DNA of 64,000 bases from Bilabrum cf. latius (GCA_965178125.1 OZ237755.1:248001-312000); one strand, 5' to 3'. Numbered from the stretch's first letter, positions 1 through 40,505 are shown. The notes: generated from the sequence alone by a model not told the origin. A program made the numbers and translations.

Positions 1-1992
1 GCGCCGACGCTGGCTGCTGCGCGCGCTGCGCAGGCCGCGATGGTTGACCCGTTCGCGAGAAGGTCTGGGCCAGGGAACAAGGGTGGGTCGGGGTGGGGCC
101 TGCTTGGAGCGGGGAACAACGACCGGCAGGAGGAGAGTCTCTCGAGTGGCGCGGAGCTCCGGCAGCTCGCGACTCGGCTCGTCACAAGGCATCATGAGGG
201 CTCAGGGTACCAAGCGGTGGCGACCTCGAGCAGCACATTACCATCGGCGCCGGCACAAAGCCCGTTCCGCGCCCGTCCACAGAGCGGCCGCAGGGTCGGT
301 GCGAGCACGCAAGGCACAGGTAGCAAGAGCACAAACATGAGCATGCAACAGCGGGGGTCACCAGCTGGCCGGGCCGCAGGGCCGCGCTCCGTGGACACCG
401 GCGTGCCTCGTCCCCGATTGCAGCATCAGTACCGTGGATCCGTCAGCCACGGTGGAATGGGGGCCGCAGCTGGAGCACTGAACAGCGAGTCTCCCGGGGA
501 TGCATCGGCAGACATGTGGGGTGACCCCGGGGAGGCCGAGCTGGCAGAGCGGGTGTACGCGCGCGTGAAGGCGACCAAGGACGTGATCTGGGCTGCCAGC
601 GAGGCGGGCATGCAGCTGGATGGATCCACTGCGGCACAGAGCGCCCTGCTGGCAGCGGCCATCGAGGCGTCCTTGCGGACACCGCCGCACCACAGGGGGC
701 AAACGGGTGCGTCATCCGGAACGGGCGGCCGGGCGGGCGGGCCTGCTAGTCGTGGCGGAAGCAGCAGCAGGGCTGAGCGTGTACGGGGGAGGGCCAGCGG
801 GCCGTCCCCGTCTGGGGGTCGCCTGTAGAGGGGGGCTGTTGGGAGGGGGGCAGGGGCTGGGGGTGAAGTTCGTCGCGATCTGGGCGGACGGCATGACTAG
901 GGTGGTGCGTCGTCGCGGGAACGGGGAACCGGTGCAATCGATCGGTCAGGTGGGGGCGGGTTCATGGCCCGTTTGGCTGCTGGCCGGGCCCGTGGGCAGG
1001 CAAAGCTAGGGTCGAGGCCTGGGTCTGCCAAGAGCTAGAGCAAGGGACCAAGTGTCCCGGTTCATGTCCCTGGTTCGCGCAAAAGGGGCACGGGGAGGGA
1101 AAGGCGAGCAGGAGGAAACAGACCGATTTCGCTGGGGATCCAGGGAACAGGGGCCAGCGCAGCTCTGGCAGGTGGCTCACCTAGGGAACACGAGGCGGAT
1201 GAGAGCAGTCCCACTGCGGTGATGGCCCGGCGTGCGGGCGGTGGGGGCACTGGATCGGCGCTTAGACGAACTGGTTCAGGACGAGGATCTAGGCAGAGCC
1301 AGCAGCACCAGCAGGGGGACAGGAGCAGATAGCGGGTTGCAGCACCGGCTTGGCGGGACCGAGCACCTGCAGCTGGTGCCAGTCGGGACTCGCTGGGAAC
1401 TGGCTCTTCTTCACTTACCGGCGCTCGGGGGCCGCGACGCAGCCGACCCCCCAGCGGGGGCAGGACTCCAATTGGGGGCAGGTCGAGACCGCAGACTCCG
1501 CAAGGGGAGGACAGGGCGCTGCAGGCCGCGCTGCTGGCCAGCATCGGTGGTGGGGGTAGGAGCGGGGCTGTTGCACTCAGTCCTCCTACTCCTACTACTA
1601 GTGGCACCGCAACTGTTGCTGGCGTGGCGCGTGAGTACACCTCGTCTGCTGCAGCTGCACCCGGGGCAGATGCGGAAGATGCCATGCTGCAGGCCGCGCT
1701 GCGGGAATCGCTCGCTTCGGGTTAGGCAGGGAGCGACGGTGTGCCCGGGGGCGATGGGGGCGGCTAGAGGACTGCCGGTGGGGCTCAGCAGAATAGGGGC
1801 GCTAGAGAGGGAGGGAGGGGCCCTCCGGTGCGCACTGGCAGGGCTGGGGCGAGAACGGTTCCGTCGCAAAGAGGAGCAGGTGCACTGCATGTAGGCGCAG
1901 GCTCACGGTCGGGGCTGGGGCTGGGGCGAAGCGGCACGCTCGCAAGTCGCAGAGGACTTGGGAGAGGCTCCGGGAAAGAATCTAGCTCGTAA
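1..1992 (+). CDS. 3' part of a low-complexity protein with ubiquitin-interacting-motif (UIM)-like repeats; 5'-partial
   Basis: Frame open from base 1 to TAA 1990-1992 if TAG (826, 898, 1036, 1330, 1723, 1765) is read as Gln. UIM-like helices: SALLAAAIEASLR (~640-678), EDRALQAALLASIG (~1507-1548), EDAMLQAALRESLA (~1675-1716). Confidence 0.7.
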
Positions 1993-2146
1993 GGTTGTAT
2001 TTGCGTTGATTCGCTCTCCGGGATACCGGCTGCTTTGCTCTTCGTGCGCCAGATCTTCACTGTGCAGTGTTTGCGACCACGGCATTGCAGTGCAGCCAAC
2101 GGACACGATGCGACTCATTCTCAGGCGGCCTGAGCGGCCAACTGAC

Positions 2147-9218: not shown

Positions 9219-9303
9219 ATGTGATTCCGAGTCCAACCAATGGCAAACCTAGGTTCAGCTGTGTTGCTTGCTCTTCATTGTTGTGCCTCATCCTACATCC
9301 GGA

Positions 9304-11892
9304 TCAGTCGTACGCCACAAAGGGCGCGTCGTCCGACGCGTAGCTCACGACCGGTGTCTGGTACGGCAGGGGCACTGGCACCACCAGGCACCCGTCGGCA
9401 GCCACGCCCGCCTTGACGACTGCCTGACACCCCGGATGGAAGGCAGGCAACATCCTCACGTACCTCGTGGCATCTCGCAACGTGGCAGCGTCTGCCACCC
9501 TATCGAGAGCCATCGACATGGAGGGGCTAGCGTCCTGGTCCAAGTCAACTTCAACGAACCCGGGTGGGATGGCTCTGCCCGCGCTGGTGCTGGTGCTGGT
9601 GCTAGACCCTCCGGGTGACGAGGACGATGACGAGGACGAGGACGATAAGGAGGACGATGAGGAGGAAGACGAACTCGAGGGTGCTGACGCATGCCCGCTT
9701 GCTGCTGATGAGTCAGCTTCTGCTGCTGCCCCTGCCCCTGCCTCTGCCCTTGGTGCTGGTGGGCCGTGCCTCTCGATGAGCAGTTTACCCCCTGGCTGCG
9801 GCAGCTGGCACGCGAGTGGTCTCAGCTGGCCCCGCTCCACCGACCCGACCGCTGCCCTTCTCCTCCTCACAAACACCCGAATCGCGTTAGCCATGGACGC
9901 AGGGGTCACCAGTACACTGGCCTCGAAGGACCTCGGCTTGGCGGTGGCAGTACCCCAAGCAGACCTGCTGATGTTGTGCGAGCCCATCGAGCAGTACCGG
10001 ACCTCGAGCAGCGGCGCTTCATCCTCCTCCTCCTCCTGCTTCTGCTTCGAACTACCTGAGGTGGAGCGAGAGCCCGGCAGAGAGGCAGCACTGGATGCGG
10101 CGAGTGCTGCACCCGCGCCCTCCGTGCCGATCTCACGGCCGGCCTCGTCCACTTTGACCACCTCTACGGGAGGCCCAGAGTTGGCGGCAGGCGTGCAGGC
10201 TGCTACGGACACCTGTCGGAAGCTGGCCATGGTCTTGATGTGCCCGGGCAGCCGTCCCAGTCCTGGGGTCGCAGCCCCCCAGCGATGCAGCAGGGGCCGC
10301 ATCTCCTGCACCTACCTCCGTCCTGAGGGCAGGGAGCTCCCGGTCACTTCATAGCCAGCATAGGACGCCGCCATCGTGGATCGGGTGGGCCAGACGATCG
10401 ACAGCGGCATGCCCGACGCTGCGTCCGAGCCATGGCCCCTCTTGGCACCGCCCGCTGACCTGCCCGCCCCCATGAACTTGCCCGCACTGGAGCTTTCCGA
10501 GCCGCTTGCAGATGATTTGTGATGGTCGCCCGCCGGTCCACCCTTCGACCCAATCCCAAACCCATCACCTTTGCGTCTCTCCCCATCCAGGATGCGCCTC
10601 GTTCTTTCGGCATGACCCCGAGGTGCCCCCAGCATGGCCAGCACGCTCTCAGGGGGATGTCCTTTGTTGCCCATGGAGGCGAATGAACTAAACTGCGCCA
10701 CGTACGTCACCGTGGCAGCGACCTCGAGCTCGGAAGGATCCCTACCCGACGGTGCTGGCGTCCCGGCGCTGCTCTTTGGCCTTGTCTCCGACCTTTCTGC
10801 GTTCCCTCGCGCCCGTTTCTACCCTATATGAAGGGCACCCCAAGGGGGGTGAGCGGCAGCAGGAGCAGCAGCAGGCAGCTTCTCAATGGCCGACCCGAGC
10901 GGTGAAGCAAATGGGCCGGGCCGTGGGTGAGCGACGCCCGCACTACCGCCGCTCAGATCCAGTTCGTCTGCTTGCAGGCAGGCGAGCAGCCGGCGGGCGC
11001 CCCACCTGCTCTGGGCGTGGCCGCTCGCCCTCACGTTGTCCACGGACCCCACGAAATGGGCGCTTGCCCCTGAGAAATCAACCCGGTCCAAAAGCGGCAG
11101 CACCCATTCCCCTGCTTTGACGGCCGTGGATGCCCTCCATCCTGCGTCTTGAGCCATGCGGTCTGCGTGCTGCCTGCGCTCCTGCTCGGTCCACCATGGC
11201 TAGGGAGCCCCGCAGGTGGCCCGCAGGTAGTCCCTGAGAGGGCCGCCGAAGATCTTCTCTCCGTAGGAGGTACGGGTCCTGGCGTCTGATTGGGCCCCCG
11301 ATTGAGATGCTGCTCTGCCGCGGGATGCGTGGGACGTGCCCATGCGTGCTCGTTTCTTTGGCGATTCAGTCTAGGCCTCTGCGCCTGCCGGCTCAGGAAA
11401 TATTGGAAAGTCTTGCCAAAACACTCCCTAGCACAAACACGTCAGGTCGCGGACTAGAAGATTTGCAGTTAGCACGATGATGCGAACCGTTCTGTCGTAC
11501 TTCAAGACAAAAAGCTTCGTGTGATGCTTCGCGTACGGTGATGTCAGCCGGATTCCCTCGCAGCTCCATTGGAACGACGCGCCGGGTGCCACACGCTCAA
11601 GAACGTGTGACATCTCTCGCGCGTACTCAGGAGGTAGCACCATGCTGACTTGTTCTAGAGAAGTTGAATGCTGGAAGACAGGGACCATTGCAATCTCAGG
11701 GTCAACCATAAAATTCACGACAAGCAGCGACCTGAGCGACTCGTTGGGTGGACTAGAGCAAAGCAGGTCTGATAATGACGCACTCATGCGTCCCTGTGCC
11801 GCGGGATCCCGGGGCTTATCTTTCAAAATCGCTGGATTCAACATCAGTTTGAAAGCGGAGGGCGCCTCTCGCACTCCTGTTGAATGGTCCAT
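9304..11892 (-). CDS. TDP1: Tyrosyl-DNA phosphodiesterase 1 (PLD superfamily)
   Basis: Motifs in correct order: NFMVD, HHTK, TANL..D....(TAG)GVFWQDFP, DFS, WG..RL, QFSS, IVWPT, HIKT, GSHNISRSAWG, SFEASVL, PLPY. One frame with TAG at 11428, 11371, 11200, 10819, 10312; ends TGA 9304. True start uncertain (possible acceptor near 11898). Confidence 0.92.
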
Positions 11893-16711: not shown

Positions 16712-17919
16712 ATGCTTCGTAGATTTAGTGGCATCTCTCGGTCAACCAGACTTGCGCGTGCATGCGTGTCCCACAGCAAATGCTGGATGGAATCTCAAGC
16801 ACGATTGAATTCGACTTGCTTCGCAGTAGGCCAATTCGCGAGCTATGGGACGGCCTTGCGCGTGGAGGGCCATCACGCTGTCACTCGTTGTACTTGTACC
16901 GCAAAGGATGTAGCAAGCGGCGCAATACGGCAGGCTGGACCTGTAGCACGTGGACCCTTCCGACACTCTGTCCCAGTCCTTTAGCAGCAAGGCAAGCCCG
17001 CGCCCGGCGCAAAGATTGCCGTAAGAGAAAAGTATTCATGTGCATTAGATTTCGGCTGACTCGGTGGCATGCCACTCTGCGCTTGTAAGTTCTACAATGC
17101 ATCCCGCAGTAGCCGATTTCATGGCCATCACTAGCTCTTCTCGTTGCTCTTGGAACTGCTGCTATAGGATACTTTAATTATACCAGAGAATAGTAGAAGA
17201 AAAAGGGTGCGTTTTATACTGCCGCCTCGCAATATTCGAGATCCTTTGTGTTTGCAGCAGCCTAGCACCTCACGTCACATTTTTTCATCGCGCTATTCTG
17301 GATCGCAGCACAGCGCCGCGTGACAACTACCGGTGACGCCAAAATTGGCGGGCCTTTCGAGCTGGTAGATAGTGACGGCAAGCCGATGACCGACTTCGAC
17401 CTGCGCGGGCAGTTCTACATCGTCTACTTCGGGTTCACCTACTGCCCAGACATCTGTCCCAACGAGCTCGTCAAGCTGGGCAAGATCGTCGATTTGGTCT
17501 CAAAGCAGAATCCCAGCCTGCCCCCCATCGTGCCAGTATTCATCACGGTGGATCCCCACCGCGACACGGTGGAGCAGATGCGCGCCTACAGGCAAGATTT
17601 CCACCCCACCATGCTCGCCCTGACGGGTACCCCCCAGCAAATCTCCCGGGTCACCAAGGCGTACAGGGTGTATTTCTCGGATACGATGCACAGGGACGAG
17701 GACGACGAGGATTACATCGTGGACCATTCCATCGCGCTGTACCTCATCGGGCCCGACGGCAAGTTCATGGACTTTTACCCGCAGCTGACCGAGCCCGAGG
17801 AAGCGGCGGAGGACATCGGCCTCAAGATGAGAGAGAGGCTCAGCCAGGACGGGATTGAGGTGGATGGGGAGGGCATTCTTAACACGATCAACAAGGCTAT
17901 TGCCAAGATGCTCGGGTGA
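16712..17919 (+). CDS. SCO1: Mitochondrial cytochrome c oxidase copper chaperone SCO1/SCO2; join(16712..17020,17110..17206,17309..17919)
   Basis: Arg/Ser-rich presequence (MLRRFSGISRSTRL), TM segment PISWPSLALLVALG, IGGPF, YFGFTYCPDICP (CxxxC), ITVDP.RD, YIVDHS. Two GT-AG introns with matching phases. TAG at 16982, 17110 (depends on acceptor used), 17191, 17194. Ends TGA. Confidence 0.93.
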
Positions 17920-18215: not shown

Positions 18216-18247
<32 letters not shown>

Positions 18248-24842: not shown

Positions 24843-25445
24843 ATGGGAGGTCAGACTATCTCTGCACCGTATGTATTTCCGACTGCAAGTGAGCTTGCGC
24901 CAGTGGCGGCCGCAACTGTAGCGCTGATTGGCGTGGGTGTAGTTGATACCCTCGCCGCAGCAAAGATGAGGGACATTACCGGCGTGCGATCTCCTCGCAT
25001 GGATGGCCCGCCTTTTTTTATGCGGGGCCAAAGGGCATAGATGAACACCATTGAGCAGGCAGTATGGTTTGTTCCCTCTCTTTGGATGCACGCAACTCTG
25101 TGCAGTCCGACTGCTGCCGCATACGTTGGTGGCTCGTATGCCCTCACCAGACTGCTGTACGGCGTCGCTGTGCGAGCGAACCGATACGATTTGGTCCACA
25201 TGCTGACTCTGCCCGGCTATTTCATGACTGGTTACCTTGCGCTGGGGCCAATTCACAGTCACATTCTCACACGGCGCCTCGGGATGGGCGAACGCACTTC
25301 AGCAGCAATTCTTGCAGGGGCATACTGCGCAGTACTAGCAGCAGCTGACATCTACGCCAACTCTCTGCGCTCTGTCGCCAAGGAAGAGGGAGCTGAAGGC
25401 AAGCCAGATCCCAGCAAGGATGGGAGGATTGTGAAGGCGGAGTGA
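24843..25445 (+). CDS. MAPEG family membrane protein (microsomal GST / LTC4 synthase-like)
   Basis: Four hydrophobic segments. GVRSPRMDG..F.R.QRA(TAG)MNTIEQ..WF.P.LW and TRLLY match the MAPEG signature RAQxNxxE. TAG 25038 joins two adjacent ORFs; ends TGA. Confidence 0.85.
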
Positions 25446-25678: not shown

Positions 25679-28600
25679 ATGGATACGACTCCTTTCGACA
25701 CCCCTAGCCGCAATCACTTTCCAAGCAAACGGGACCTAAATGACGAACTGGCATGCGACACGAAATCAGAGTCGTCGGATGACACAGATTCGAACACAAA
25801 GGACAATAAACGCCGACTCAGTATTGAACTGGTTGGTTTGCTTCGAGAAGGCCACAGGTTCGAGGAGGAGGACGTGAGAGGTTGAAATCAAACGCAAACG
25901 GCGACGAGCATGATTCGATCATTGTTCCACACTCAACTCCCTTGGCCATCAAGTATCGCAGCATGATGATTCTGACTCAACATTCGACCTCTCTGGCTCC
26001 GGAGAGGACGGGCTGGAAGGGGCTGCCGCAGATCACGCTGGTGTGCCTGCGAGCAGGGCTGGTGGGCATCAGCATGGGCTTGGTCCACATGCGATCCCGT
26101 ACCTGATGACACCTCCAAGGAAGCCAAAAGTTGACGGGGAGAGGAGGGTTGTCGATGCATCGGCCGCAAAGCCCGGGGTGGTCACTCGAGTGCCGGCACG
26201 CCCGTTCGATGTTGTGACTGCCATGGAGTCCAGTGAGCGCATTAGAAATCAAAAACGACAGAGCTTGGGTAGGATTAATGCACTTGCCAGTGGCCATGAT
26301 TGCGATGGCACGAACGACAGCGGCGATCCGGACGCCGATTTGAGTGCGAGCGTCACCCCGGAGCAACTGCTCGAGTAGAGCGCAGATGCTGCTGAGCTAC
26401 CATCATGGGCAGCGGGCTCTTCTGCTTGGGGACTCGATGCACACAGCACGGGATCATTTGCTTAGATGCAAATTGGTGCTCGTATGCAAGAGCGTGGGAC
26501 AGGGGTCACTTCCAGCGAGCACGCTAGCCCATCGGCGGATGCTGCTGGCATGCCAACCAACGAGCCGCTCAGCCCGATCCAAGCTACCGACGATGACAGC
26601 GGAAACCACCCCGCATATTTTGCTGATCCTAACAACTCATTGCCGGCCTGGGACATCGGCATGCAGCTCATCCCTCCCGCCGGGGCACCAGACAAGGAAA
26701 GCGAACACAAGCAATCCGCGAGCGAGCATCGGCAAGCCGCTCAGCGTGTGGAGGGCTCGAGCGCAGAAGAGCTGGAGTGGTCCCCACCCAGGCACCCATT
26801 GGATCATCATCTAGGGCATGGGGAGGGGCTCGATGCGGCCCTGGATGCTGCCGCTCAGGATGGGCTCATGGTGCAGGGCATGCACGTGCAGGGCATGCAC
26901 GGGGCAGACCAGTGGGACGGTCGGAGCGGGGGAAGGCGCGCAGTGCCTGGAGATGTCATGTCGCGGAGCGAGCGGCTTCCGAGCCGTGCAAATGCGCCAC
27001 TCGCTGGCATACTAGGTCACAGCGGATCCGACAAGCCACTTAGCAACGGCGCACATGATTTGAGCCGACCTGACGCCGCTGATGCCGATGCTACCTCTGG
27101 CGATCTGGTCCGGCACGGTGGGGACTCCTCTCTCCCGCAGGAATCGGCTCAAGGCGGCGATGATTCAAGCTGGGACGGGCCAGAGGCCGACAGCACCATG
27201 CTAGCAGATGACCTGGGTGGGCATTCTCCGACCGAATACGACGATGACAATGCAAGACCAGCAGCGGCTCACGCAGGCAATGCCACTAGTTCACGCGAGG
27301 ATCATCAACTTCCGGTGGTGAACGGCACTGGTGGCAGTCCCAGACGCCACAAGGTTACTCCACTGCGATAGAGAGGTGCATTTGTAGGCAGTGCTGACGG
27401 GTTTGCGATCGCCATCGGGCCTAAGTCTGCCGTTACACCTGAGAGGCGAGACACGCAGCCAGCCAGCTCACACGCCTAGGGTAACCGCCGGCTTGTTGGG
27501 GAGGAATCTGCGCCATCCCTGCCTGCACTCAGCCCTGTTCTTCTTGGAGCAGACCATAGGGCGCTGTCGCCCGTACTAGAGCGCGCCGACAGCAACGATG
27601 GCAGCAGCGGTGATCACCAGCAGCAAGAGCCGGCCGTGCGAGGCAAACCTCCGCTGACTCCCGCGCCGACCTCTCCGAGGCCGTCCCAGGCCGGGTCTGC
27701 GCGCTCGCTGGGCCGCCCGCCCCTTCACGACGGGTCCAGACACACGCCGGAGCAGCTGCGTGTCTCGGTGACCGCGTCCCTCCGCCGCCTTGCGATAGAC
27801 GAGGAGGAGGAGGACGCCGAGGAGGACGGCGAGGTGTCGGCGATCGGGCTCTGCGATGTCCGGGCGATGGATCATGACGCAGACGTGCAGCACGCTGCCG
27901 GGGCTCAGCTGCAGCATGTCGGCAGCCCGGAATCGAAAGTCCACTCGACGGTCCCCAGCCCTGCAGACCGATCCCTCCCGCACACCCTTTCCCCGGCCCG
28001 TCGGCAATCCACTGGATCTGCTGGTGCGCTCAACCTCACGGGCATGAGTCCCGAGGTGCAGCGCATGGTGCGCGAGCGACACGCGAAGGAGCGATTCCAT
28101 GAGCCGCTCTTCGGGCCATCTGGTGATGCAGCGGCCCAGCAAGAATCACTGAGAGAGGGTCCAGGGGCAGGCCCGGCACGGGACAGGCAGGGTCCCAGCG
28201 AGAGCTCCGATGAGCAGGCGGGTCAGTCGACCCGTTGCCCACCCAATGGGGGTGGTCCATTGCAAGACGGACTCTCGAAGTCGCGCAGTCGGACACCTCA
28301 GTCAGATCGTGTCAGCGGAGCTGATGGGCCGCTCACAGACGAACACGGGGGTGCCAATAGTCCTGGCGCTCCTCAGGACTCTGGATTCGGATCCGATGAG
28401 TCTGTTGTGAAATCGCTCCGCTTTGACGACACGCCAGTGACGCCCCCTCGCCACCACTCGCTCAGCACCCTTGGCGGGCGGGCAGCCTCAGGAGGTCGAG
28501 CGAGGGAGCTCTCAGGCGACGCGATCGGCCGCAACAGGCTATAGGGTTCGCACTCCGAGCTGCAGTCATCTCCAGGAATGGACACGCTGCAGCACGTGAC

Positions 28601-30437
28601 CCTCGCCTCCGTCCCAAGCGCCAGGAGGGGTGCTGCAGCCGGAGTTGCCTAGCATGCCTCTACCAGCGGTACTGCAGCGGAGCAGCATCTCACAGACGAC
28701 CGCTCTAGCGGAAGCATTGGGGTGTCTGTGACGCAAAGCGATGGTAAAAGGCAGCCTAGCAGCGTGGAGGAGACCGGCACCAGGCCGATGGATGACAGGG
28801 CTGCGCCGTGGGACTCGCTCTACTGGGCCGAACCCCGCCGCTACTCCATCGCTGACCTCTCAGCGGGTCCTGCCGCCGGTATGGGCGCCTTTGCGCGAGA
28901 GAGGGAAAGAGCGGCCCGCTCCACGCCCGGCCACCTGGTGTTCTCTCCAGCTATCGTAGCTCATTCGGATGCCCGCCGCAGCACTGGCCCGGCCTGGGAG
29001 GTCACCCCACTGCCCGACTCTGGGAATAGTGCGGGCATACGAGGATACAGGAGCTCGCGCGGCATCTCTGAGGCATGGGAGCTTGCTTCTCCGAGCAGGA
29101 CCAGCACGGCATCTGGCGGACGGAGCAGCGGGCTGGGTGTCAGCGGGCTGCAGAATGCATCCGCGCTCGGTGTCTCGCTGGCGAGGGCCCGATCAGACGG
29201 ACCCGGCGCGGTGCTGTCTGATGAAGACGACGAGGACGGTATTGCCGAAGACATCGCAACCACATCCCGGGTTCGGTTCGGTGCGCGCACCAGCAGTTAG
29301 AAAGCGGTTGGCAGTGCGGCAGCCCCGAGGTCACCACAGCAGCTGATGCGCTCCTCCTGGCGAAAGTCTTTATCCGCTAGAAGCCGGGCCTCCATGCGCC
29401 GGTTGCGGCAAGACAGGCAGGGCCACAGAGGCGGTACGGCTATCGGCACAGTCTCGGCGTCCACCGGGCAGCGCGGTGCAGTGGTTGCAGCGGCAGCAGA
29501 GGACTTGGGGGGTCCTCGATACCGGCACCAGATGGACGCCAGCCAGAGCTCCGAGGCTGCGTTTCTCGAGGCTTTCCACTCCCTCGGGGGCACCAGCAGG
29601 GCCAGGGGAGGGAGCGCTTCTGTGGAGCTGTCCCTTTCTGCCTCGTCTGCGTCCTTGCTGCGGAGCACGAGAGGTGGAGGCAGGCGGTCCATGGGGGCAA
29701 GCCGTGCCCTGGACAGCACCAGGGCATCCACGGCCGGGCTGGTGGGGAACAGGCAGCGGGCTGCCCTCATGACCGCCTCTTACCTGGCGCATGCCGGCCG
29801 CCCCTTGACTGCAAGCAGGACCGGGGGACGCCCTGCTCCGAGGTTTGGATCGCCCGACCCCCACCCAGCAGCTGCTCGGACCCCTGCCGGATTTCGGCCT
29901 GCGTCCTTCACGGGCGAATCTGCAGCCTCCAGCTAGCACAGGCTCGCCGGTCGTTCATCATTTGCTGGCAGGGGGGACAGTAGGAGAAGGAGAAGCGGCG
30001 TGCAGGGTACCGCCCCCGATCGATTCGCACGGTGGGAGGCGTCATCTAGCGCGGGTGCATCGCACGGTGGTGCCATGCATCGGGCGGGCCACGCCGCCAC
30101 TGCAGACCTCACTGACGGTGGTCAAAGGCCTGCGAACGAGAGTGGGGGCGGGCTGGCCAGGTTTGGGAGCTGGGCTGCGTTAAGTGCATCCGTCGGCGGT
30201 GGCATTGGTTCTCAAGCGGCTGCTGCTCGGGCTGAGGCGGGTGGGAGGGAGCACCGGCTTGCGCACAGCCATCGTGACCCTGCAGCGTCGACAAAGGCAG
30301 GTCTGCCTCGAAGCCAGGTAGCAGGGGCGTCCTAGGCGGCTGAGCTGCTCGGTGCCGGGCAGCTAAGGGACAGCGGGATTTGGGGGCCCGAGGTGGAGCG
30401 GCGGCGCGCAGCTCTCTCTGTTGCTGACTTGAGCTGA
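25679..30437 (+). CDS. Large, probably disordered Ser/Gly/Ala/Arg-rich hypothetical protein; join(25679..25873,25962..30437)
   Basis: GTGAGA...CGCAG phase-0 intron. One frame open for ~4.5 kb across 9 TAG to TGA 30435-30437. Confidence 0.7.
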
Positions 30438-30631: not shown

Positions 30632-31953
30632 ATGGCTGCTTTCTAGTGGGCAGATCGCCAAGAGGACATTCGTGATAACATCAGCAGCTTCGAACGTGCT
30701 GCAAACCAAGGGTGGATTGAGGAGATGGAACGGATTCTCCGCTCACGAACAGATCCAGAAGGATGTATTTTAACTTCTTCGTACGTGAGCAATGGGCGCA
30801 ACAATTGTGGCGGTGCTTAGCCTTGATTGTGGCTCAGCGCATACCATTCCCTTCGAGTGGCTCCCGGCGCAGAGGAGGTGGCTACCAATTCATCGCGCTG
30901 CTGACACTGGCAAGCACCAAGTTATCAAATTTCTGTTAGATAATGGCTGTGACCCCGATGCAATCGGACCGGAATCTGTGAGATTGCTCCGAGAAGGGTC
31001 ATTCGACTTTTCTAGCATGGTAAACTTTAGGCCACCCTAAAGAAATCAGCTGCACGTAGCAGTGCATCCCACTCATGAGATATGTCCTAACTCATAATGC
31101 TACTGCAGCGCGGCATACAACTCTCCCCGCTGCACCTTGCGGCTCGAGCCGGGCACGCGAGGTGCTGCCTGGCGCTTCTCCAAGGTGGAGCAGACGTCAA
31201 CATGAAGGTCAAAACAGTCATTGAGAGCTAGTACGCCTTGAAATACTTGTATGGGTGCGAAAACGGGTCCACATCTCTACACTGCGCTGTCTACAGAGGC
31301 CGGGTTGTGGCCGCGGCTATCCTACTTGCGCACGGTGCTGATCTGAACGCAGAATCGGACGTAAGTTGAACAAGTTGAACCCCTGGCGAGCTCCTCCAAA
31401 ACCCTGCCCATTGCCAGATTGCTGAGAAAGAATGCCGATGCGTCTAATGCCAAGCGCGCAGGCTGGTCACACGCCGCTCTACTGCGCGGCCGTCCAAAAG
31501 AACAGATATGAGTCCCACTGGCGCCGCAGCGAGCCGCGCGCCTTTCTGCTGGCGGCCATGATCCAGGCTGAGGGGGACTCCATGGCGTGTCTGCGGTACC
31601 TGCTGCGCAACTGTGGCCAAGATGACAGAACGGCGATGTGCAGTATGCTGCGGTGGCCGAGCAAGTTCGGCGCTCTGGCCCGGTGGAGGCACGCAGCTGA
31701 CGCCAAAAGGGATGCTGCGCTCGTGTTCCAGGCGGCCAGTGAGGGCAGGCCCATGGAGCTGGCCAAGCGTCTAAGGCTAGGTAGATTGGCGGGTGGCATG
31801 CAGATGAAGGGAGTTGTGGCGGGAACGGGTGGTGATGGTGATGGTGATGACTTGCGCTGCCAGTGCACCCCTTTGGAGGCAGCTAGGCTGGGGGGCCACG
31901 AGGAGTGCGTGAGGGTGCTGCTGGAGTGCTTCAAGGGTGAAGAACGGGCGTAA
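30632..31953 (+). CDS. Ankyrin-repeat protein, tandem copy 1; join(30632..30784,30873..30977,31109..31360,31462..31953)
   Basis: PIHRAADTG, SPLHLAARAGH, TSLHCAVYRG, GHTPLYCAA, TPLEAARLGGHEECVRVLL. Three phase-0 introns, two with CTAAC/CTAAT branch-like motifs. Ends TAA. Confidence 0.85.
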
Positions 31954-33597
31954 CCACGAACTAGTTAAGCCGAACAAGAGAAGGGGCTGGTGTTCTCGAT
32001 CGGTGGCAGTGATTCCGGTTTTAATATCCCAGTTTTGTTCGTTCGTTCGCAGCGAGCGGATGCACTGACAGAGCACGATTGTGTCTCAGCTGTATACTTT
32101 TATCTCGGAAGGGGCTGCAAGGTGCAACAAGTGCCGGATAGAGAAGCGCAGAGACCTGCAAAAAGCACTTCGCGGCCGGGGCTTGTGACCCGAACATTGC
32201 AAAGGCCTGCATTGCTGCATTTATTTAGTCGCGTTGATGGTATTACATGTACGCCGCAAGATATGAGCATCAGCATCGGCGGTGAGAAAAAAAGCACGCA
32301 ATGGCCCTGGTGCAGCAAGGAAGCCGATGCGTTCTCAAACCATTAGTATTCGACACGACTGTATTCTCCATGTGCGTAGCAAAGACCATGGTAATGTTAT
32401 CGTTGAATTCCAGCGGGCTTGCTTGGCCGGTCAAGATGAAACGGCCAAACAAATATATAAACAGGCACCGCGCAGATCTAGAGCCGTGCTGCTGGAACGC
32501 GAATCGTACGTGAGGTTCGACACAGGAAAAGTGCATGTTGGCTCGCGATGTGCTTAGCATGTCACGCTAAAATAACTCGGGGAAGTCACCGTGCTTGTTG
32601 TTCGCAGACCAACTGGCACCCTCTGCATCACGCCGCGGATACAGGACTGGCAGGTGTTTGTTAGTTCCTGCTGCGCGCCGGGACTGATCCCAACGTGCTG
32701 GGTACTGTAAGTTTTGCTTGTAAAAAGGTACACATAGCCTGTTTTCATTGTATGATCCGCGCAACAAGCATAAAATTGACCCAAATCTGCGCAGCGCACT
32801 GCCCCTTGGACGCCTCTCCATCTCGCGGCACGCTCGGGCCATGGTGAAGTGTGCAGGCTCCTGATCAGAAGCGGTGCAAACATGGATTTTAAGGCTGGAA
32901 CAATGTCATGTGGTCCGACATATTTCGAGAAGAGCACGCAGAAGGGGTGGACGCCCCTACACTGGGCGGCATTCCGTGGGCGGGTCGCCACTGCCGCGGT
33001 CCTGCTCGCTGCTGGGGCGAGCATGGAGATCCGATCCAGCGTGAGGCATCACCTGTGCGATCCATGTCAGAGTTTGTCATTTCACTTGCATTATCATGGG
33101 CATTGACGGCGTCACTAGCTAGCCCTCACGGCACGCAGGACAAAGGCCACACTGCGCTAGACGTGGCCCGCACTGTCGATAACCTCATATACCAAAAGAG
33201 GTATGACGCCGACCGCGCCTTCCTCGCGGACATGATGCACCGGTCCAAAGGAGATGGTCAGGAGTGCGTGCGGCTGCTTCTTGCACACGGCAGGCCAGCG
33301 CTGAGGCTGCAGATCATGCGACAAGTGGTTTGGCCGAGGCGATCCAGGCGGCTGGCCCGGTGGAGGCACGCAGCTGATGCCAAAAGGGATGCTGCGCTCG
33401 TGTTCCAGGCGGCCAGTGAGGGCAGGCCCATGGAGCTGACCAAGCGTCTAAGGCTAGGTAGATTGGCGGGTGGCCTGCAGATGAAGGGAGTTGTGGCGGG
33501 AACGGGAGGTGATGGTGATGGTGATGGCTTGCGCTGCCAGTGCACCCCTTTGGAGGCAGCTAGGCTCGGGGGCCACGAGGAGTGCGTGAGAGTGCTG
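31675..33597 (+). repeat. 246-bp direct repeat: 31675-31920 and 33352-33597
   Basis: By eye about 7 substitutions and no indels; lies in the last exon of both ankyrin genes. Confidence 0.92.
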
Positions 33598-33777
33598 GAG
33601 GAGGAGGCTTTCGTCGAGGAAAAGAGACGCCGCGCTGCTCCCCCATAGCCAAGCCCGGAGAGAGCTGCAGCCGCTGCTGCTGGCAGGGGCAGGGGGGAAT
33701 CCAAGGGCACACCAGCAGCGCCTGACGGGAGCGCAGGCCAAAGAGGGGGATCTGTCCTATAGTGTGTTTGTTTCTAA
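32327..33777 (+). CDS. Ankyrin-repeat protein, tandem copy 2 (4 exons; start uncertain)
   Basis: HPLHHAADTG, TPLHLAARSGH, GWTPLHWAAFRG, GHTALDVA, TPLEAARLGGH. Intron positions equivalent to copy 1. TAG at 32662, 33646, 33760; first non-TAG stop is TAA 33775-33777. Confidence 0.8.
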
Positions 33778-33943
33778 GACGCTAATTTGTGAGTGGCTTT
33801 GATCGTGGGTGCCCCACACCACTTGTGCCCACCAACTGCAACTGCACTGTCTTGGGCTGCTCTCCCCGGTCTTCATCTTGACCGACACACGACTTCCGAC
33901 CATAAATCATCGAATTAAGCCCATATCTTCCTCTATTTTGCAA

Positions 33944-36900
33944 ATGAGTATGAATCAAAGATCTACACCGCTAGCTGGGGCGCGGATACGCATCGGAGTC
34001 TGCGCCATGGACAAGAAAGTGAGTGCCTACTGCTTAGCTTTGCAACAGCCAATGACTGCTGCCAGCCATGCACACGTAGAGCTCTCACGGACCTCGCGCC
34101 CCGTATTTGCAGGCACGAGGTCGACCAATGACTGAAATTCTCAGCAGGCTTCCGCGGGATATTTTCGATGTGGTGATCTTTGGAGACGACACGATTACCA
34201 ACGAACCGATTGAATCTTGGCCAGTCGTCGATTGTCTCATCGCTTTTTTTTCGGCCGGCTTCCCTCTCGCGAAGGGAATTAGGTATGTTATGCACAGGCG
34301 GCCGTACTGCGTCAATGACCTCACCTATGAGGTCATGATGAGGGATAGGCGAATGTTCTACAGCTAGCTGAGCCTCTGCGGCGTCCCCGTACCGAACCAC
34401 GTCGTGGTTTCGCGAGATGGACTCGGCGAGATGTGTTCGTAGCCCATGGAATGCGTGTCGGCCGCACTGAGTCGCATCGAGGCAGGCGACAAGGAGCTCA
34501 TCGGCATGTCGTGGCTCCGCGACCAGATTGATGCCATGGCGCGCGATGAAGCCGGCCCCCCCAGATCACCCAGCCCGACGGGTCACGGTAACAGGCTGTC
34601 GAGCTCACCGAGCGACCACCGCGCCATCTCTCCGAGCGGAGAGCCCGAGCTCCCTGCCGTCACGGGCACGGAGGTGGGCGGGCCTGGAGATGCGGGGTTG
34701 CCGATGCTGCCCACCAGCGGCAGCGGCAGCGGTTCGGCGGGGGCGGGTCCCGCGCCATCCTCTGCGGCCACGACCGCCAGTCAGACTTCCTCGCAGAGCG
34801 TCCCGCCGAGCCGCGCTCCCGATGGCGAGCTGCAGGTGTGGGAGACCGAGGACTGGCTGCAGGTGGGCACCCAGCGCATCTACAAGCCTTTTGTGGAGAA
34901 ACCCGTGGACGCGGAGGACCACAACGTGAGGATCTATTACCCCAGGAGGATGGGAGGAGGGTGCAAGCACCTCTTCCGCAAGCGCAAAGACCGCTCCTCG
35001 GAGTTCCGGGAGCACCAGTGGCGAGTCCGCACCAGGGGGTCCTTCATCTACGAGGAGTTCCTGTTGACCCAGGGGACGGACATCAAGGTGTACGCGGTGG
35101 GGCCGGAGTATGCGCACGCAGAAGCTCGCAAGAGTCCAGCGGTGGACGGGATCGTGTAGCGGGACAGAGACGGCAAGGAGCTTCGCTTCCCTATCATGCT
35201 GACGAGGGAGGAGAAAGAGCTGGCCAGGAGGGTGGTGCTCGGCTTCCGGCAGAACGTGTGCGGGTTTGACCTGCTGAGAACACCCCTCGGTAGCTATGTC
35301 TGCGACGTGAATGGGTGGAGTTTCGTGAAGAAGAGCGCAAAGTACTACGATGACGCCGCCTCGGTGGTGGCTCTCCTGTGCGCGAGGGCAGCCCGGGGCG
35401 CGTCCGCGCGAGCCGCGCCCGGTGCTGGTGCCTGGATTCTCTCCTCCCCCAGAGCCGGTCCCTCGCTGGCCATGAACCACGTGAGCCCCTTAGACGAGGA
35501 GCACCCGGGGCAGCTCCCGCCCGCCCTGCATGGGGAGGCGCAGCCCCGGTCAGGGGAGGGCGCGTCGGTGCGGCAGGCAGCCACCGCCGCTCTCGGAGGA
35601 GCCGCCGGCGTGGATGCCCCGGGCGCTGGTGCTCTCCCCGGGGCACCCACCAGCATCGTCGACATGCTGGAGGAGGCGGTGCAGCGGCGCGGCCGCTCCG
35701 CCAGTATCAGCGAGACGTCCAACGGCGACGAGGAGCTAAGGTGCGTGATCGCAGTGGTGAGGCACGGAGACAGGACACCAAAGCAGAAGCTCAAGATGAG
35801 CGTCAAGTCCCCGGCGTTTTTACAGCTCCACCGGCGCTTCGCGTACGGTCCCCGTAACGAGGCAGTGCTGAAGACGGCTAGGCAGCTACAGATGGTGCTG
35901 GATGCCGCCAGGCTGCTGATCGCCAAGACGGAGCACGCGGGAGACAGCGACTCTGACGGAGAGTACGAGAGCATCCGGAGATTGAGGTCGCTGAGGGCCG
36001 TTCTGGAGATGGGCGGCGAGTTCTCCGGTATCAATCGCAAGGTCCAAATCAAGCCCGTCAAGTGGGAGAAAGTCCCGAGGATGTCTGACGAGGACCGCAG
36101 ATCGTCTCTGCAGTCCCTTGTGGAACACTCCCCGAGAGGACCACCAGTGGCGGGGACTGGAGCCGCTGCAACGGCCGCGGTACCTATTCCAGACGGAAGA
36201 ACCACCCCGAACAGCGCCACTGGCAGCAGCGCTGGCAGTAGCAGCGGCGGTGGCGGTGGCCCAGGTACTGTGCCTGGCACGGTGAGCTTCGGGATCGGCG
36301 GGGGCGTGCCCTCTGCGCGGCGCATGCCGTCCGATGGATACATAGGGCTGTCAGGGATGGGGTCGTCTCCCGGCTCTTCCTCTGGGTCCAGACCCCCAGT
36401 GGGTGGAGGCGGGATGCCGGCACCGTCGACGGTGGGTATGGAGAGGGAGAGAGGAATCCTGGACGCGTCTGCCTCCCCTCGCCGGATCCACTCGGAGCTT
36501 TTGCGACCCGGCACCACCTCCCACCTGGAGGGGGGCCACGGGGACGAGGACGGGACGGCTGTCCCGGTGCGTAGGTCCAGCATGTCTTCGCTGGGCGGAC
36601 TCAGTCGCGGGGGGGTAGAGCACGACGAGGACATCATCGCGCACCATGGGAAAAGCGGGGTGCCTGTGGCACCGTCTGCCGTGCCTTGGCCTGACATGAC
36701 CATCGGCACCGACTAGAGTCAGGTGGGGGAGCGCACTGGCAGCAGGAGCAGGCGCAAGGGATCCAACTCCACACCACGACGGAAGCCAGGGGAGAGGCGG
36801 GTGAGCGCCGCGTCAGAGGCCACAAAGGACATACCCGACGCTGTAGTTGACCTGGGGGCTGGGAAGGAGATCCGGCGATGGGACCAGTCGACAGAGATCG

Positions 36901-39900
36901 TCACGGAGGCGGTGCTTGTGCTCAAGTGGGGCGGCGTGCTGACAGAAGCAGGCCGGCGGCAGGCCGAGGCCCTCGGTAAGCGGTTCCGTGACACGCTGTA
37001 CCAAGGTGAGTCTCTTCTTCGGCTGCACTCGACCTACCGCCACGACTGCAAGATATATGCGGCGAGCGAGGGTAGGGTGCAGATGACGGCGGCCGCGTTC
37101 GCCAAGGGCTTGCTCGCGCTGGAGGGGTCGCTTACCCCGATCCTCGCCTCGCTGGTGCGCAACTACAACACCAAGCAGCTGCTGGACGACGCGTCGCCTG
37201 CCAAGGATCTCATCAAGCAAGCCAAGGCACGACTGAGGACGGGCCTCGTACGCTCCTGGATGGGCGAGCCGACGTACGATCATGCAGGCCTGCTGTTGGG
37301 GCTACCCACTGGACTCGTGGAATCCATCGCGCCCACGCGATCTGCGTCTATGCTTGAGGCAATCCAACGGCTAGCTCCCAACCCGTTGTAGCGCCTACAA
37401 GACCTGCACGTCATGATTTAGAAGCTCGTGGTGGAAGCAAAGGAAGCTGTGCACCGCGCGCTGAAGGACGAGGTGAAGGGAGGAGACGATAGGGCCCTCA
37501 GGCTGCTGGAGGACTTCGAGATTGCATCGGAGGCGATGGGGCTGGGCATGCAGGACACCCACGGTGCTGGTGCTGCAGGGAGCAAAGAGCGCAAGGGGGA
37601 GTCAGGAGGCACAATCCCTGGCACTTACGCCGATCCGGCTGGAGCCGCTGGCGCTGTAATTGAGCACGCCAAGTCTCACGGAGGTGTGCAGATCGTCGCA
37701 ATTGCCGAGGGCACTGACGAGAGCGATGCCACAGAGCCGCCGCACCCAGAGAAATCCTAGTCCCCCAATGCGCGAGATTTAGGCGGGGCCGACAGCACCG
37801 AGGCGGCCGGGCCGAGAATCAGCCATAGCAGCCTCCCTGCGAGCGAGGGGGGCGGCAGCGCAGACCATAGCATGAGCTCGCCCGAGACCGGCCCAATGCA
37901 CGCCAGAGACTTATCCGGAAAGAAGGCTGGGGTTACCATGGGCCGCGTTGATTCGTTTGGTTCCAAGCCAGATCACCAGGCGGCCCATGTGTCTTCCAAT
38001 AGCGGGATGACGGGCTCGGTGGACTCGTTCCCGCACTCGAGCGTGCACAAGGTCATCGGGGCTGGGCTGCGAGGAGGCGTCCTGGGAAGGATCGAGGCCG
38101 AGGTGGGCACGAAGAGAACGGGAGACGGCTCCCGGAGCGCAAGCCGCGCTGACCGCAGCCCCAAGTCAACGGGCCGGGCCAGCACCTCCGCCACAGACAC
38201 GGCCCTGCTCTGGCACGACGACGAGAGTGAACACGCCAGGATTGTGGACGGCGGCCGCGAGGCCGGGGGCATGAGCATGTCCGTCTTGTCTCGCCTCCTG
38301 TTCCTCATGGGCCGCTGGTGGCGGCTCAGCCGAGACCTGCACGATCGCAAGAAGAAAAAATGGAACCTATCCAAGCTCGCAGACGTGTACGATAACTGCA
38401 AGTTCGACTGTCAGCACAACCGAGACCTCGGTCTGAAGCGGGTGGAGGACGTGTTCCAGCTGGCCGTGGCGTTCGCAGACTGCATCATCCCGCAAGAGTA
38501 TGGCGTGACCACGCTGGAGAAGAGCATGGTGGGCTGCCGCATCGTTCATCACCTCCTCCGGAAGATCTTCTTTGATCTGACTGTGCACAAGCAGTCCTGG
38601 GAGGTACGCGAGGGAGGCAAGAAGGGCGCGATGATGCCCGACCACGAGCATGCGACCGCGTCCCGCAGCTCGCCTCCCTCGGCACACGGCATCGGGGATG
38701 AGGAGAGGGCTTGGACGGCATTCCGGTCCAGCTTGGCGCAGGCGAAGCATCGAGTCAAGCAATCTGCGCTGATGACTACGGCTACTGTCGACCTAGCCGC
38801 ACCTGCAGGCACATCCCTGCCAGCAGCGCCCTCTCCGATCGTGCACGGCGATGCATCAGGAGACGGTGAACACCCAGTGGACTAGACAAGCTTGGACGGT
38901 CGGCTCAGGGCGACAGAATCGGCCGAATCGGACCCCGGTGGAAACGGCATGTGGCCCGAAGATTTTGAAGCGGACGAGGCAGCGCACCAGCTGGACTCTG
39001 CCTCGATGGCCAAGACAGGGTACGATGACGTGAACTTGATCCAGCACAGGGTGCGCACTCGGGTGTACTTCACCAGCGAGGCCCACCTCCACTCGCTCGT
39101 GAACGTGGTTGCGCACGGCGACGGGGGCCTGCGATCCACACACATCACAACCGTGCCTGGCTACGTCCGGTCGCCCACGTCCTCCCCGCGAGGCATTCGA
39201 GGCGCCAAGGGGCCCAAGAGCTTGCCCAGTGGCACTCCTCTGAGCATTTCAATGTCCAAGCCGAGGAAGAGGAACCGCAGACCGGGCGGAAGCTAGCCAC
39301 AGGATGCGGCGAACCCTGGGTCTTTGGCTGCAGCCACTGGTCCGTCTGCTTCCAAGCGATCGCCAGGCAGTGCTTTTTCATCTGTGAAGCGTGGCATTGG
39401 AGCTAGCTCTGGAGCTGGCATAGCGCAGGACACGGAGCGCGAATCGTCCGGTTCCAGGGGTCTGCTGACAGAGCGAGGGCGGCAGTACCTCGAGAGGGTC
39501 CCAGAGCTGGATTACTGCTCTCACGTGGTGTTCTTGCTCTATGAGAGGACCAATGAGCCAGTGGGATCGCCTCGCAGGCACCGTTGCGAAATCCGGCTGT
39601 CACCGGGAGCATCGTACTCCCCATTGGACGGCAAAGTGCGGGCACCTCCCACTAGCTTGACCAAGCCTATCAGGATGCAGTCCAGCAAGTCGTCTGCGAA
39701 AAGGCTGCAGCGAAGGTTCGCCACGGATTCGCCCTCCTTTGCAGGCACGACTTCGTCGTCCAATATCTTCGAATCAGCCGATGGCAGCCTGAGCGGAGCC
39801 ACATCTCCGCTTGCCCTGCCAGGTGCGGCCGCTCCCGCGAGGCTTAGCGAAGCAGAATCCCCTGTGGACCCGACTGCAGACAAAGAATAGCCGGCGGGAG

Positions 39901-40505
39901 GCACCAGCCCAAGCCTTGCGCCCAAACGCGCTCGCTCCCAGTCTGCCCGAAACCTCGAGACGCTGGGCGGCCTGGAGAACAGGGAAGACGATCGTCCAGA
40001 GACGGGCGTGTTAGCCCACTCCAGCGCTGAAACAAGGCCAGTCACTGGCGATGGGACGTCCTCGACGAGCGTGCACGACCAAGGCGCGGCGCAACCCCTG
40101 ACTGATGGCACCGGTGGGTCCTCACGAAGAATGGCACCTCGGCAGGCGGCTGGCGCGTGGAGCCAGGATCGCGTCACGTACCCCGTCACAGAGGCAGAGT
40201 AGACCGGCAACCAAAACGGCGTTGTACTTGCTCCGACTCCGCGCGCGTCGGCTGCAGAGCTGAAAAGCGGCTGCCTTCCTGTGTGTGGCATGGTGGTGCT
40301 ATCCGACGACTGCCCGCTCGGGGTGGTAGAGGATGCGCTGGCCGCAGCTATTATGGCACCGGGGGCCCCTGATCCGCGAGAGATGCGACACACTCCCGCT
40401 GGGGAGCGATTGCGCAAAGCCAACCTGAGGACGCCGAGCCTCAACATGGCTGCGGTCGCTGCCTCCTCATCAGATGGGGCCGGTGGGTCGACCAGCAAAG
40501 GCTAA
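33944..40505 (+). CDS. VIP1: Diphosphoinositol-pentakisphosphate kinase / histidine acid phosphatase (PPIP5K/Vip1); join(33944..34018,34113..40505)
   Basis: [128 protein letters not shown]. 11 in-frame TAG; ends TAA. Confidence 0.96.

Follow-up and report, generated by a model that had tools for sequence, protein, structure and literature searches.

Codes in which UAA and UAG are both read as glutamine (NCBI table 6 type) occur in many ciliates, in Hexamita, Streblomastix, and Amoeboaphelidium, and in some Ulvophyceae. NCBI table 15 covers Blepharisma nuclei, and some phages likewise read TAG as glutamine; in phages, the reassignment proceeds via the bacterial release factors RF1 versus RF2, which is a different mechanism. 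UAG as glutamine with UAA kept as a stop is a rare arrangement that has been described before in a small number of other protists. In the portions of the three papers drawn on here, the uncoupling of UAG from UAA is reported in 2017 (PMC5304391), again in 2021 (PMC8271138), and in 2024 (PMC11687900). The nuclear code of Iotanema spirale (Fornicata) is described therein with UAG as glutamine and with UAA and UGA as stops (Panek et al. 2017, PMC5304391). Ciliates with UAG alone as glutamine include Hartmannula sinica, Trochilia petrani, and Protocruzia tuzeti, and a CUA anticodon is argued to let UAG change without UAA (McGowan et al. 2024, PMC11687900). Other UAG-only changes concern the rhizarian exLh and the TARA phyllopharyngeans, with leucine, and Scotinosphaera, with serine (Li et al. 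2021, PMC8271138).

The window, meaning the whole stretch of 64,000 nucleotides analyzed here, is with high probability nuclear DNA, and its source an aerobic eukaryote with a GC-rich genome and introns, in whose cytoplasmic code UAG stands for glutamine and termination is left to UAA and UGA alone. In form, this code is NCBI table 15 (TAG as glutamine, TAA and TGA as stops), of the kind found in Iotanema spirale; the identity with the Blepharisma and phage entry is one of formal description only.

Codon counts and gene ends

When TAG alone is freed as a sense codon, the longest stop-to-stop frame of 791 aa gives way to frames of 2422, 2283, 2150, 1691, and 1508 aa; no frame length in the window changes when only TAA is freed. 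The 19 gene models (Table 1), three of them corrected from spliced RNA contigs, comprise 17,600 codons. They contain 107 in-frame TAG codons and, as a sequence-only reading of this DNA had claimed, no TAA and no TGA—zeros that are partly circular, since frames free of TAA and TGA are the definition used, and that come from coding samples on the 20-kb scale, with which a very rare sense TAA would be compatible. Read in their two off-frames, these genes show TAA 32 and 52 times, TAG 108 and 122 times, and TGA 290 and 322 times. In-frame TAG is thus about as frequent as off-frame TAG, and its occurrences are evenly spread. Support from outside this count comes from a contiguous RNA contig, from halves of Pfam domains that flank TAG codons, and from the orthologous genes of L001, a contig that comes from a related species and is syntenic to the window. 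CAA was correctly said to be in free use for glutamine (160 CAA versus 543 CAG), and UAG makes up ~13% of the glutamine codons of the window.

TGA closes 15 of the models and TAA the remaining four. The sequence-only reading had counted 16 and four, and its four TAA ends (1990, 31951, 33775, and 40503) are all found at exactly these coordinates. Its TGA count falls to 15, one of which, at 59565 in the kinesin exon, is probably intronic; GC rises past this TGA, which is probably not the true end of the kinesin gene. UGA is a stop, as it closes 15 of the 19 genes and is absent in frame versus several hundred off-frame occurrences. It is the main stop (about four in five genes), with UAA as a minor one.

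Table 1 Gene models and other features of the window, with in-frame TAG codons and gene ends
Feature	Coordinates	Strand	TAG	End	Remarks
G1, low-complexity protein	1..1992	+	6	TAA (1990-1992)	5' end off window
G2, 2277 aa	2385..9218	+	14	TGA	L001 orthologue known
Tyrosyl-DNA phosphodiesterase (TDP1)	9304..11892	-	5	TGA	PF06087 1.2e-34; human TDP1 alignment
Ubiquitin-domain protein	12854..15313	+	1	TGA	PF00240 1.1e-24
SCO1/SenC (mitochondrial copper chaperone family), last exon	17320..17919	+		TGA	PF02630 4e-45
Leucine-rich-repeat protein, 1679 aa	19625..24664	+	8	TGA	
MAPEG-family protein	24843..25445	+	1	TGA	PF01124 4.7e-9
G7, 2 exons	25679..30437	+	9	TGA	Intron 25874-25961; GT..AG joint in runs X5 and X6
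Ankyrin gene A (AnkA), 4 exons	30632..31953	+	2	TAA (31951)	Spliced RNA contigs
AnkA exons	30632-30784, 30873-30977, 31109-31360, 31462-31953	+			Spliced RNA contigs
Ankyrin gene B (AnkB), 5 exons	32247..33777	+	3	TAA (33775)	Tandem AnkA paralogue; spliced RNA
PPIP5K/VIP1-type inositol pyrophosphate kinase-phosphatase, 2 exons	33944..40505	+	11	TAA (40503)	Intron 34019-34112; PF18086 and PF00328; PDB 3t7a match 1.3e-90
Protein kinase, 2349 aa	40955..48004	-	25	TGA	Long low-complexity regions; PF00069 1.2e-27
Non-coding-like frame, in frame with kinase ORF	48221..49071	-			TAA at 48221; decayed GT61 3'-end copy
GT61-like glycosyltransferase	49072..51885	-	3	TGA	PF04577 1.8e-5, under Pfam cut-off
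LRR protein, putatively TBCE-like	52234..53688	+	5	TGA	PF12799
Folylpolyglutamate synthase (FPGS)	53884..56295	+	7	TGA	
Coiled-coil protein	56411..58612	-	4	TGA	
Kinesin motor exon	59565..60581	-	1		PF00225 7.7e-60, to profile position 268/327 only
Dual-specificity phosphatase-like protein	61318..62655	+	2	TGA	PF00782 2.8e-7, under Pfam cut-off
GH116 glycosyl hydrolase, C-terminal part	62838..63998	-	0	TGA	5' end off window; PF04685 3e-19

At the protein kinase locus, an RNA contig starts at 40714 and, from its length, would end near 48061. The TAA at 48221 was considered as an internal kinase TAA and rejected: its frame scores -0.084 in codon usage over 282 codons, versus 0.129 for coding sequence.

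The amino acid at UAG

TAG is kept as UAG in the spliced RNA contigs. A contig from run X5 covers 34113-40546 with 0 differing letters relative to the window, and none of six listed differences lies at a TAG; RNA editing is thus absent. TAG codons are placed between two motif regions of TDP1 and within the PPIP5K kinase domain, and some lie inside or between the domains that Pfam and PDB matches mark out in TDP1, PPIP5K, and FPGS. With 132 homologues aligned, the TDP1 column at aa 155 holds glutamine in 113, asparagine in 13, aspartate in three, glutamate and threonine in one each, and a gap in one; leucine and serine are absent from it. At aa 349 of PPIP5K, the three closest homologues all have glutamine; among 120 homologues, glutamine and glutamate are found in 32 each, followed by methionine (18), asparagine (17), and leucine (13). 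FPGS aa 183 is aligned with Q, Q, N, D, and D in five solved FolC/FPGS structures (PDB alignments). The TAG of AnkB in exon 32608-32706 stands opposite a lysine of its tandem paralogue AnkA, and window-level composition and neighbor-context tests do not single out glutamine.

Between the window and L001, 24 TAG sites were kept with at least three of six flanking residues identical. Their partner codons are CAG at 11, CAA at two, TAG at two, and others at nine sites, meaning glutamine at 13 of the 22 informative ones. Over these 22 sites, lnL is -37.9 for Q, -56.7 for H, -67.9 for R, -68.4 for S, -72.9 for E, and -100.9 for L, placing glutamine 18.8 lnL units ahead of the next residue. As read from the homologue and orthologue columns, TAG is glutamine, and UAG is a fully integrated codon for it. 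The database proteins P0243 and P0244 end exactly at TAG positions of the window, and the L001 DNA has a TAG directly after ..CGAP; hence, the relatives share the code.

Termination at UAA and rival readings

Each of the four TAA codons closes a long reading frame. GC drops past them by 0.08-0.23 (mean 0.137, n=4; mean 0.106 past the TGA ends, n=15), and the codon-usage score decreases across the TAA in four of four cases, the downstream sequence scoring as non-coding. This agrees with the AT-richer, non-coding-like sequence noticed earlier behind these codons. For G1, GC changes from 0.66 to 0.55 and the codon score from -0.006 to -0.145. The C terminus ..ASVPR of G2 is shared with its L001 orthologue; the stop behind it is TGA in the window but TAA in L001, where another TAA lies two codons past the terminal one. 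The end of the PPIP5K contig from X5, 41 nt past the TAA and short of the next in-frame TGA (40584), is a weak hint of termination from one study. RNA contigs cannot prove transcript ends, and X5 is labeled "RNA? (probably DNA)", yet its contigs carry GT..AG joints. By the counts and the orthologous gene end, TAA is a true stop. The proposal that UAG is sense while UAA and UGA terminate is thus upheld by the counts, the glutamine columns, and the two G2 ends.

An ordinary table 6 code, with UAA and UAG both as glutamine, TAA rare from high GC, and the four "TAA-ending" genes running to the next TGA, is extremely unlikely. The composition would suit it, with GC of 62% and NNG favored over NNA in each of the two-fold pairs, and read-through would be tolerable at AnkB, where TGA lies five codons past the TAA, and at G1, where it lies 47 codons on. 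At AnkA, a second in-frame TAA follows five codons on and in-frame TGA is absent for 151 codons, so that read-through would extend into the next gene. Under the CAA:CAG ratio of the 19 models, 31.5 internal TAA codons are expected and none is observed (P(0) ~2e-14); over all NNA/NNG codon pairs, the expectation for the first 17 models only is 15 to 77. The 2,769 codons of L001, with CAA:CAG of 53:93 (CAA 36%), contain 33 TAG and no internal TAA, versus ~19 expected. The sequence-only reading had likewise held that TAA is not merely avoided. TAA is also present in the off-frames of the modeled genes, takes the place of TGA at the conserved G2 C terminus in L001, and is followed by non-coding-like sequence in each case. 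In-frame UAA is defining for table 6 codes, whereas UAA closes genes here, and an internal TAA at a conserved glutamine, named beforehand as the sign of such a code, is found nowhere in the 17,600 + 2,769 codons.

A context-dependent code, in which UAG would be both sense and stop in the manner of the Condylostoma stop codons or of Blastocrithidia UAA, is very unlikely. For genes truly ending at TAG, the models would have been extended to whichever TAA or TGA came next, and TAG does lie within 20 codons of the end in two genes (AnkB at 5, FPGS at 18). However, two late TAGs in 19 genes are about what chance gives for a codon of 0.6% frequency (about 2.3 expected), in-frame TAG is as common as off-frame and evenly spread, and in 19 of 19 genes the composition breaks at the terminal TAA or TGA. 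The published UAG-only codes, as treated in the relevant portion of PMC11687900, show no such dual use. An ambiguous all-stop code of the Condylostoma/Blastocrithidia type would show UGA (as tryptophan) and UAA in frame, whereas the 17,600 codons contain neither. Lowest of all is the credence given to another residue at UAG, either leucine, as in the rhizarian exLh, or serine, as in Scotinosphaera. For leucine, PPIP5K aa 85 is a Leu-type column (L 66, Q 1 among 120 homologues), although the residues in the three nearest homologues are V, V, and K; for serine, many TAGs adjoin serine in low-complexity runs. Against both stand the L001 partners (leucine at 0/22 and serine at 1/22 sites), their lower likelihoods, the TDP1 column without either residue, and the Q/E/N/D-type columns at FPGS aa 183 and PPIP5K aa 349.

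Mechanism, host, and described codes

With UAG as glutamine and UAA as a stop, the codon would be read by a tRNA-Gln(CUA) unable to pair with UAA, probably originating from a copy of tRNA-Gln(CUG), and the hold of eRF1 on the third-position G of UAG would be weakened; these steps are modeled on the codes as described in portions of PMC5304391 and PMC11687900. No tRNA or Rfam match is found in the window or L001 and no eRF1 among the named ORFs of the window, consistent with the earlier statement that both genes lie outside it.

The host is neither Iotanema spirale nor a ciliate and is probably a further independent lineage, being set apart by its 62% GC, spliced introns of ~90-130 nt, an SCO1 gene, and a PPIP5K nearest to that of Cafeteria. 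We tentatively suggest, at just short of an even balance, that the window and L001 belong to a clade not described before and comprising two species or more—aerobic, GC-rich, possibly bicosoecid-like stramenopiles—in which UAG as glutamine evolved independently with UAA and UGA kept. If true, this would be the first UAG-as-glutamine-only case outside ciliates and fornicates and the first such GC-rich genome with UGA, not UAA, as the main stop. The GC-rich setting would then be opposite to the AT-pressure scenario of "codon capture" and would therefore favor an ambiguous-intermediate or eRF1-first route.

Compared with the described systems, Iotanema has in common with the window that UAG alone became glutamine and that UAA was kept as a stop, with the same predicted mechanism of a tRNA-Gln(CUA) and an altered eRF1, as far as the cited portion of PMC5304391 goes. 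It is an anaerobic metamonad with UAA as the primary stop (PMC5304391), whereas the window carries SCO1, ends 15 of 19 genes in UGA and four in UAA, and differs further by its GC content and spliceosomal introns. In exLh, the TARA phyllopharyngeans, and Scotinosphaera, UAG is uncoupled and UAA is a stop as in the window, whereas the amino acid differs. Hartmannula, Trochilia, and Protocruzia share the codon table of the window, with UAG widely used as sense; according to the same portion of PMC11687900, UAA ends 86.9-98.3% of their genes at a GC of 27-54%, whereas in the window, which shows no ciliate-like sign, UGA dominates at 62% GC.

Gene content, introns and in-frame codons

The window has a G+C content of 62%, and Pfam and PDB matches assign it genes typical of eukaryotes, namely a PPIP5K/VIP1 kinase-phosphatase, TDP1, FPGS, a kinesin, a protein kinase, SCO1, MAPEG, GH116, and ankyrin and LRR proteins. 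Between 25001 and 45000, nine short segments (88-131 nt, GT..AG) are missing from the contigs of three public runs, while a DNA run is unbroken across the same nine. The segments are hence spliceosomal introns, and the genes are expressed as spliced RNA. For X5, a sequencing run with contigs matched to the window and labelled 'RNA? (probably DNA)', the splice reading rests on these GT..AG joints and not on the label. Three gene models were corrected by the joints. In PPIP5K, the ATG at 34068 is intronic and the true first exon begins at 33944, which gives a product that agrees with the N termini of homologues; the two ankyrin genes consist of 4 and 5 exons. In PPIP5K and in the window gene G7, introns lie near the 5' end, and the subsequent exons of 1,500-2,100 codons are free of them.

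No stop-to-stop frame exceeds 791 aa under the standard code. When TAG alone is freed, the longest frames become 2422, 2283, 2150, 1691, and 1508 aa, and freeing TAA alone leaves them unchanged from the standard-code lengths. The 19 gene models (17,600 codons) contain 107 in-frame TAG, no TAA, and no TGA. In their two off-frames, these genes show TAA 32 and 52 times, TAG 108 and 122 times, and TGA 290 and 322 times; TAG is thus equally common in and out of frame, and TAA and TGA are kept out of the reading frame. The sequence-only reading had stated that the coding sequences lack internal TAA and TGA and use CAA freely for Gln, and both observations hold, with 160 CAA versus 543 CAG codons. 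It had also counted 16 genes ending in TGA and four in TAA; the four TAA ends lie exactly where it placed them (1990, 31951, 33775, and 40503), and the TGA ends number 15, so that this tally is essentially reproduced. The kinesin TGA at 59565 is probably intronic, since the motor domain is cut off early there and GC is higher beyond it.

The count of zero TAA, against 31.5 expected from the 107 TAG at the CAA:CAG bias (P(0) ~2e-14) and 15-77 from any other NNA/NNG pair (first 17 models), is partly circular, since the frames are defined by TAA and TGA; hence, frames split by TAA were searched for. Only one turned up as a candidate, at TAA 48221, a codon that shares the frame of the kinase ORF. 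The 282 codons upstream of this TAA, however, score -0.084 per codon in codon-usage log-odds, a scale on which coding 40-codon chunks reach 0.129 +/- 0.094 and off-frames -0.204 +/- 0.163, and the kinase RNA contig, judged from its length, would end at ~48061, short of the TAA. An internal TAA was rejected because the frame scores non-coding and probably lies outside the kinase RNA contig.

Genes and further features of the window
Feature	Position	Strand	Observation
G2	2385-9218	+	
TDP1	9304-11892	-	
Frame 5' of SCO1 domain	17089-17319		'..REXXKKKG..' with two adjacent TAG, then a hydrophobic intron-like stretch
G7	25679-30437	+	
RNA-supported introns	25874-34112		9 of 9 are 88-131 nt, GT..AG
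Loose ends	27795-27831, 30050-30073		In DNA and RNA runs alike
Contig jump	27824-30050		One DNA contig links the two positions, omitting 2225 bases; possible causes are structural variation, a second haplotype, or a G7-internal repeat
AnkA	30632-31953	+	
AnkB	32247-33777	+	
Tandem ankyrin-repeat paralogues	30632-33777		3' parts almost identical (~31.7-31.95 kb versus 33.5-33.7 kb), with doubled DNA-run contig depth; C termini differ immediately upstream of the TAA stops
PPIP5K	33944-40505	+	
Kinase	40955-48004	-	
Frame at TAA 48221	48221-49495	-	425 codons with neither TAA nor TGA, lying downstream of GT61 and scoring non-coding; holds a decayed duplicate of the GT61 C-terminal coding region ('W.GEHCG..RPDGS')
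GT61-like	49072-51885	-	
LRR protein	52234-53688		One match in homologue search
FPGS	53884-56295	+	
Kinesin	59565-60581	-	

The amino acid read at UAG

As Leu and Ser are published alternatives, the identity of TAG was tested and not assumed. The strongest evidence comes from L001, a metagenome contig of 8858 bp from a related species, which was found via the TDP1 N terminus and is syntenic with positions 2385-15313 of the window. Its orthologues are G2 (54% identity, 25 in-frame TAG), TDP1 (48%, 4 TAG), and a ubiquitin-domain gene (30%, 4 TAG). In the codon-level alignment of window and L001, 41 sites have TAG in either species. Among them are 24 sites where three or more of the six flanking residues are identical, and there the partner codon is CAG at 11, CAA at two, TAG at two, and another codon at nine (Arg 2, Glu 2, Gly 2, and one each of His, Pro, and Ser); Leu is the partner at none of these 24. 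Scored with substitution frequencies from the same alignments, the partner residues give lnL values of -37.9 for Gln, -56.7 for His, -67.9 for Arg, -68.4 for Ser, -72.9 for Glu, and -100.9 for Leu. The readings of UAG as Ser, which occurs once among the partners, and as Leu are rejected, since both fall far below Gln. Editing of UAG to CAG in the RNA is rejected too, because the X5 contig covering 34113-40546 shows zero differences from the DNA. None of the six between-run differences listed falls on a TAG codon, so strain variation is silent on synonymy. Within the window alone, per-segment counts of TAG versus amino acids and neighbour-residue likelihoods were uninformative on the amino acid.

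Conserved positions point to the same residue. TAG at TDP1 aa 155 lies within a motif that aligns with human '..TQGIW', and among 132 aligned representatives 113 have Q at this position, 13 have N, 3 have D, and one each has E, T, and a gap. In the five solved structures shown, the residues opposite FPGS aa 183 are Q, Q, N, D, and D. At PPIP5K aa 349, Q and E each occur in 32 of 120 homologues, M in 18, N in 17, and L in 13, and Q is found in all three of the closest. PPIP5K aa 85 is the exception, with L in 66 and Q in one of 120 homologues, the three closest having V, V, and K; in the phosphatase region of this protein, the alignments end short of both TAG sites. Taken with the partner codons in L001, UAG is assigned to Gln with high confidence.

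The related species of L001 has the same TAG-sense code, which makes the code common to a clade and not a property of one strain. P0243 and P0244, database proteins of relatives, terminate exactly at the position of a window TAG, and the TAG after ..CGAP is visible in the L001 DNA; these two proteins are truncated through standard-code gene calling. Together with P0245, P0293, and P0242, they are fragments, each broken off at an in-frame TAG, that belong to a single TDP1 orthologue or to close relatives.

UAA as a stop codon

G2 ends in ..ASVPR and TGA in the window, and its orthologue in L001 ends in ..ASVPR followed by TAA, one codon, and TAA. L001 is less GC-biased (58% GC, CAA:CAG 53:93), and its 2,769 codons contain 33 in-frame TAG and no TAA versus ~19 expected. 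In the ankyrin gene AnkA, a second TAA follows five codons past the first, and no TGA occurs for 151 codons, so that read-through would enter the next gene. Past the TAAs, the sequence becomes AT-richer and non-coding-like, as had been proposed: the mean GC fall is 0.137 after the four TAA ends versus 0.106 after the 15 TGA ends, and the codon-usage score is lower at all four, changing from -0.006, 0.110, -0.037, and 0.101 before to -0.145, -0.001, -0.230, and -0.079 after. The PPIP5K RNA contig ends at 40546, 41 nt past the TAA and ahead of position 40584, where the next in-frame TGA stands; the DNA run carries on beyond, and the next RNA contig begins at 40714. This contig end, from one study and of a kind that cannot prove a transcript end, hints weakly at termination at the TAA. 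Hence, UAG is read as Gln, and translation terminates at UAA and UGA, which bears out the sequence-only reading.

Mechanism, placement, and known codes

Such a code would call for a tRNA-Gln with the anticodon CUA, which pairs with UAG and not with UAA, and for an eRF1 that would recognise UAG inefficiently. Panek et al. argue for a tRNA-Gln(CUA) and an eRF1 change in Iotanema, with T32G in the GTS motif of eRF1 (PMC5304391), and McGowan et al. make the same argument (PMC11687900). ARAGORN and Rfam detected no tRNA in either sequence, window or L001, and no eRF1 is among the named window ORFs, in agreement with the earlier statement that neither gene lies in the window. As DNA and spliced RNA data contain the sequence and a second species has the same code, the tRNA-Gln(CUA) and eRF1 changes should be findable.

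In a quick single-gene tree, PPIP5K groups with Cafeteria roenbergensis at an SH-aLRT of 91, within a clade of seven rows (98*), and a second Cafeteria sequence falls elsewhere; as a placement, this is no more than a weak hint. A scan of a prokaryote genome collection contained no misbinned relative, its sole match being a PPIP5K-like protein on L018, the chromosome of an actinobacterial MAG (Lapillicoccus sp.). This protein (10001-11206) shares 43% identity with the kinase domain of PPIP5K across query residues 47-399, and an actinobacterial MAG is an unexpected place for a eukaryote-typical ATP-grasp kinase.

A UAG-only reassignment means that a eukaryotic eRF1 and tRNA pool are able to split two codons that usually change jointly, and each independent lineage of this kind is a natural experiment on how the separation works. 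With 62% GC and with UGA ending most genes and UAA a minority, the present case broadens the range of known conditions, and its significance would be greater if the lineage proves undescribed. For annotation, it means that standard-code gene callers cut the proteins at TAG, an artefact across the whole clade.

The code formally equals NCBI table 15. Uncoupling of UAG and UAA was first described in 2017, with UAG read as Leu in the rhizarian exLh and as Gln in Iotanema (PMC5304391); later reports describe UAG as Ser in Scotinosphaera (PMC8271138) and as Leu or Gln in phyllopharyngean ciliates and Protocruzia (PMC11687900). The uncoupling is therefore not new, and the premise of a conflict between such codes and the constraints of wobble and eRF1 had already been dealt with in print. 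Full-text literature searches outside subscription journals and supplements retrieved no report of a UAG=Gln code with UAA and UGA stops in a GC-rich or stramenopile-like eukaryote, and the code may nonetheless have been published for such an organism. In the published cases UAA dominates and the genomes are mostly AT-richer; this UAA dominance holds for Iotanema and for the ciliates with such codes, the ciliates having UAA at 86.9-98.3% of gene ends (PMC11687900). In contrast, the organism described here terminates about four-fifths of its genes with UGA and one-fifth with UAA, and it differs from the published cases in its SCO1 gene, its 62% GC, its introns of ~90-130 nt, and, as a weak point, the grouping of its PPIP5K with Cafeteria roenbergensis.
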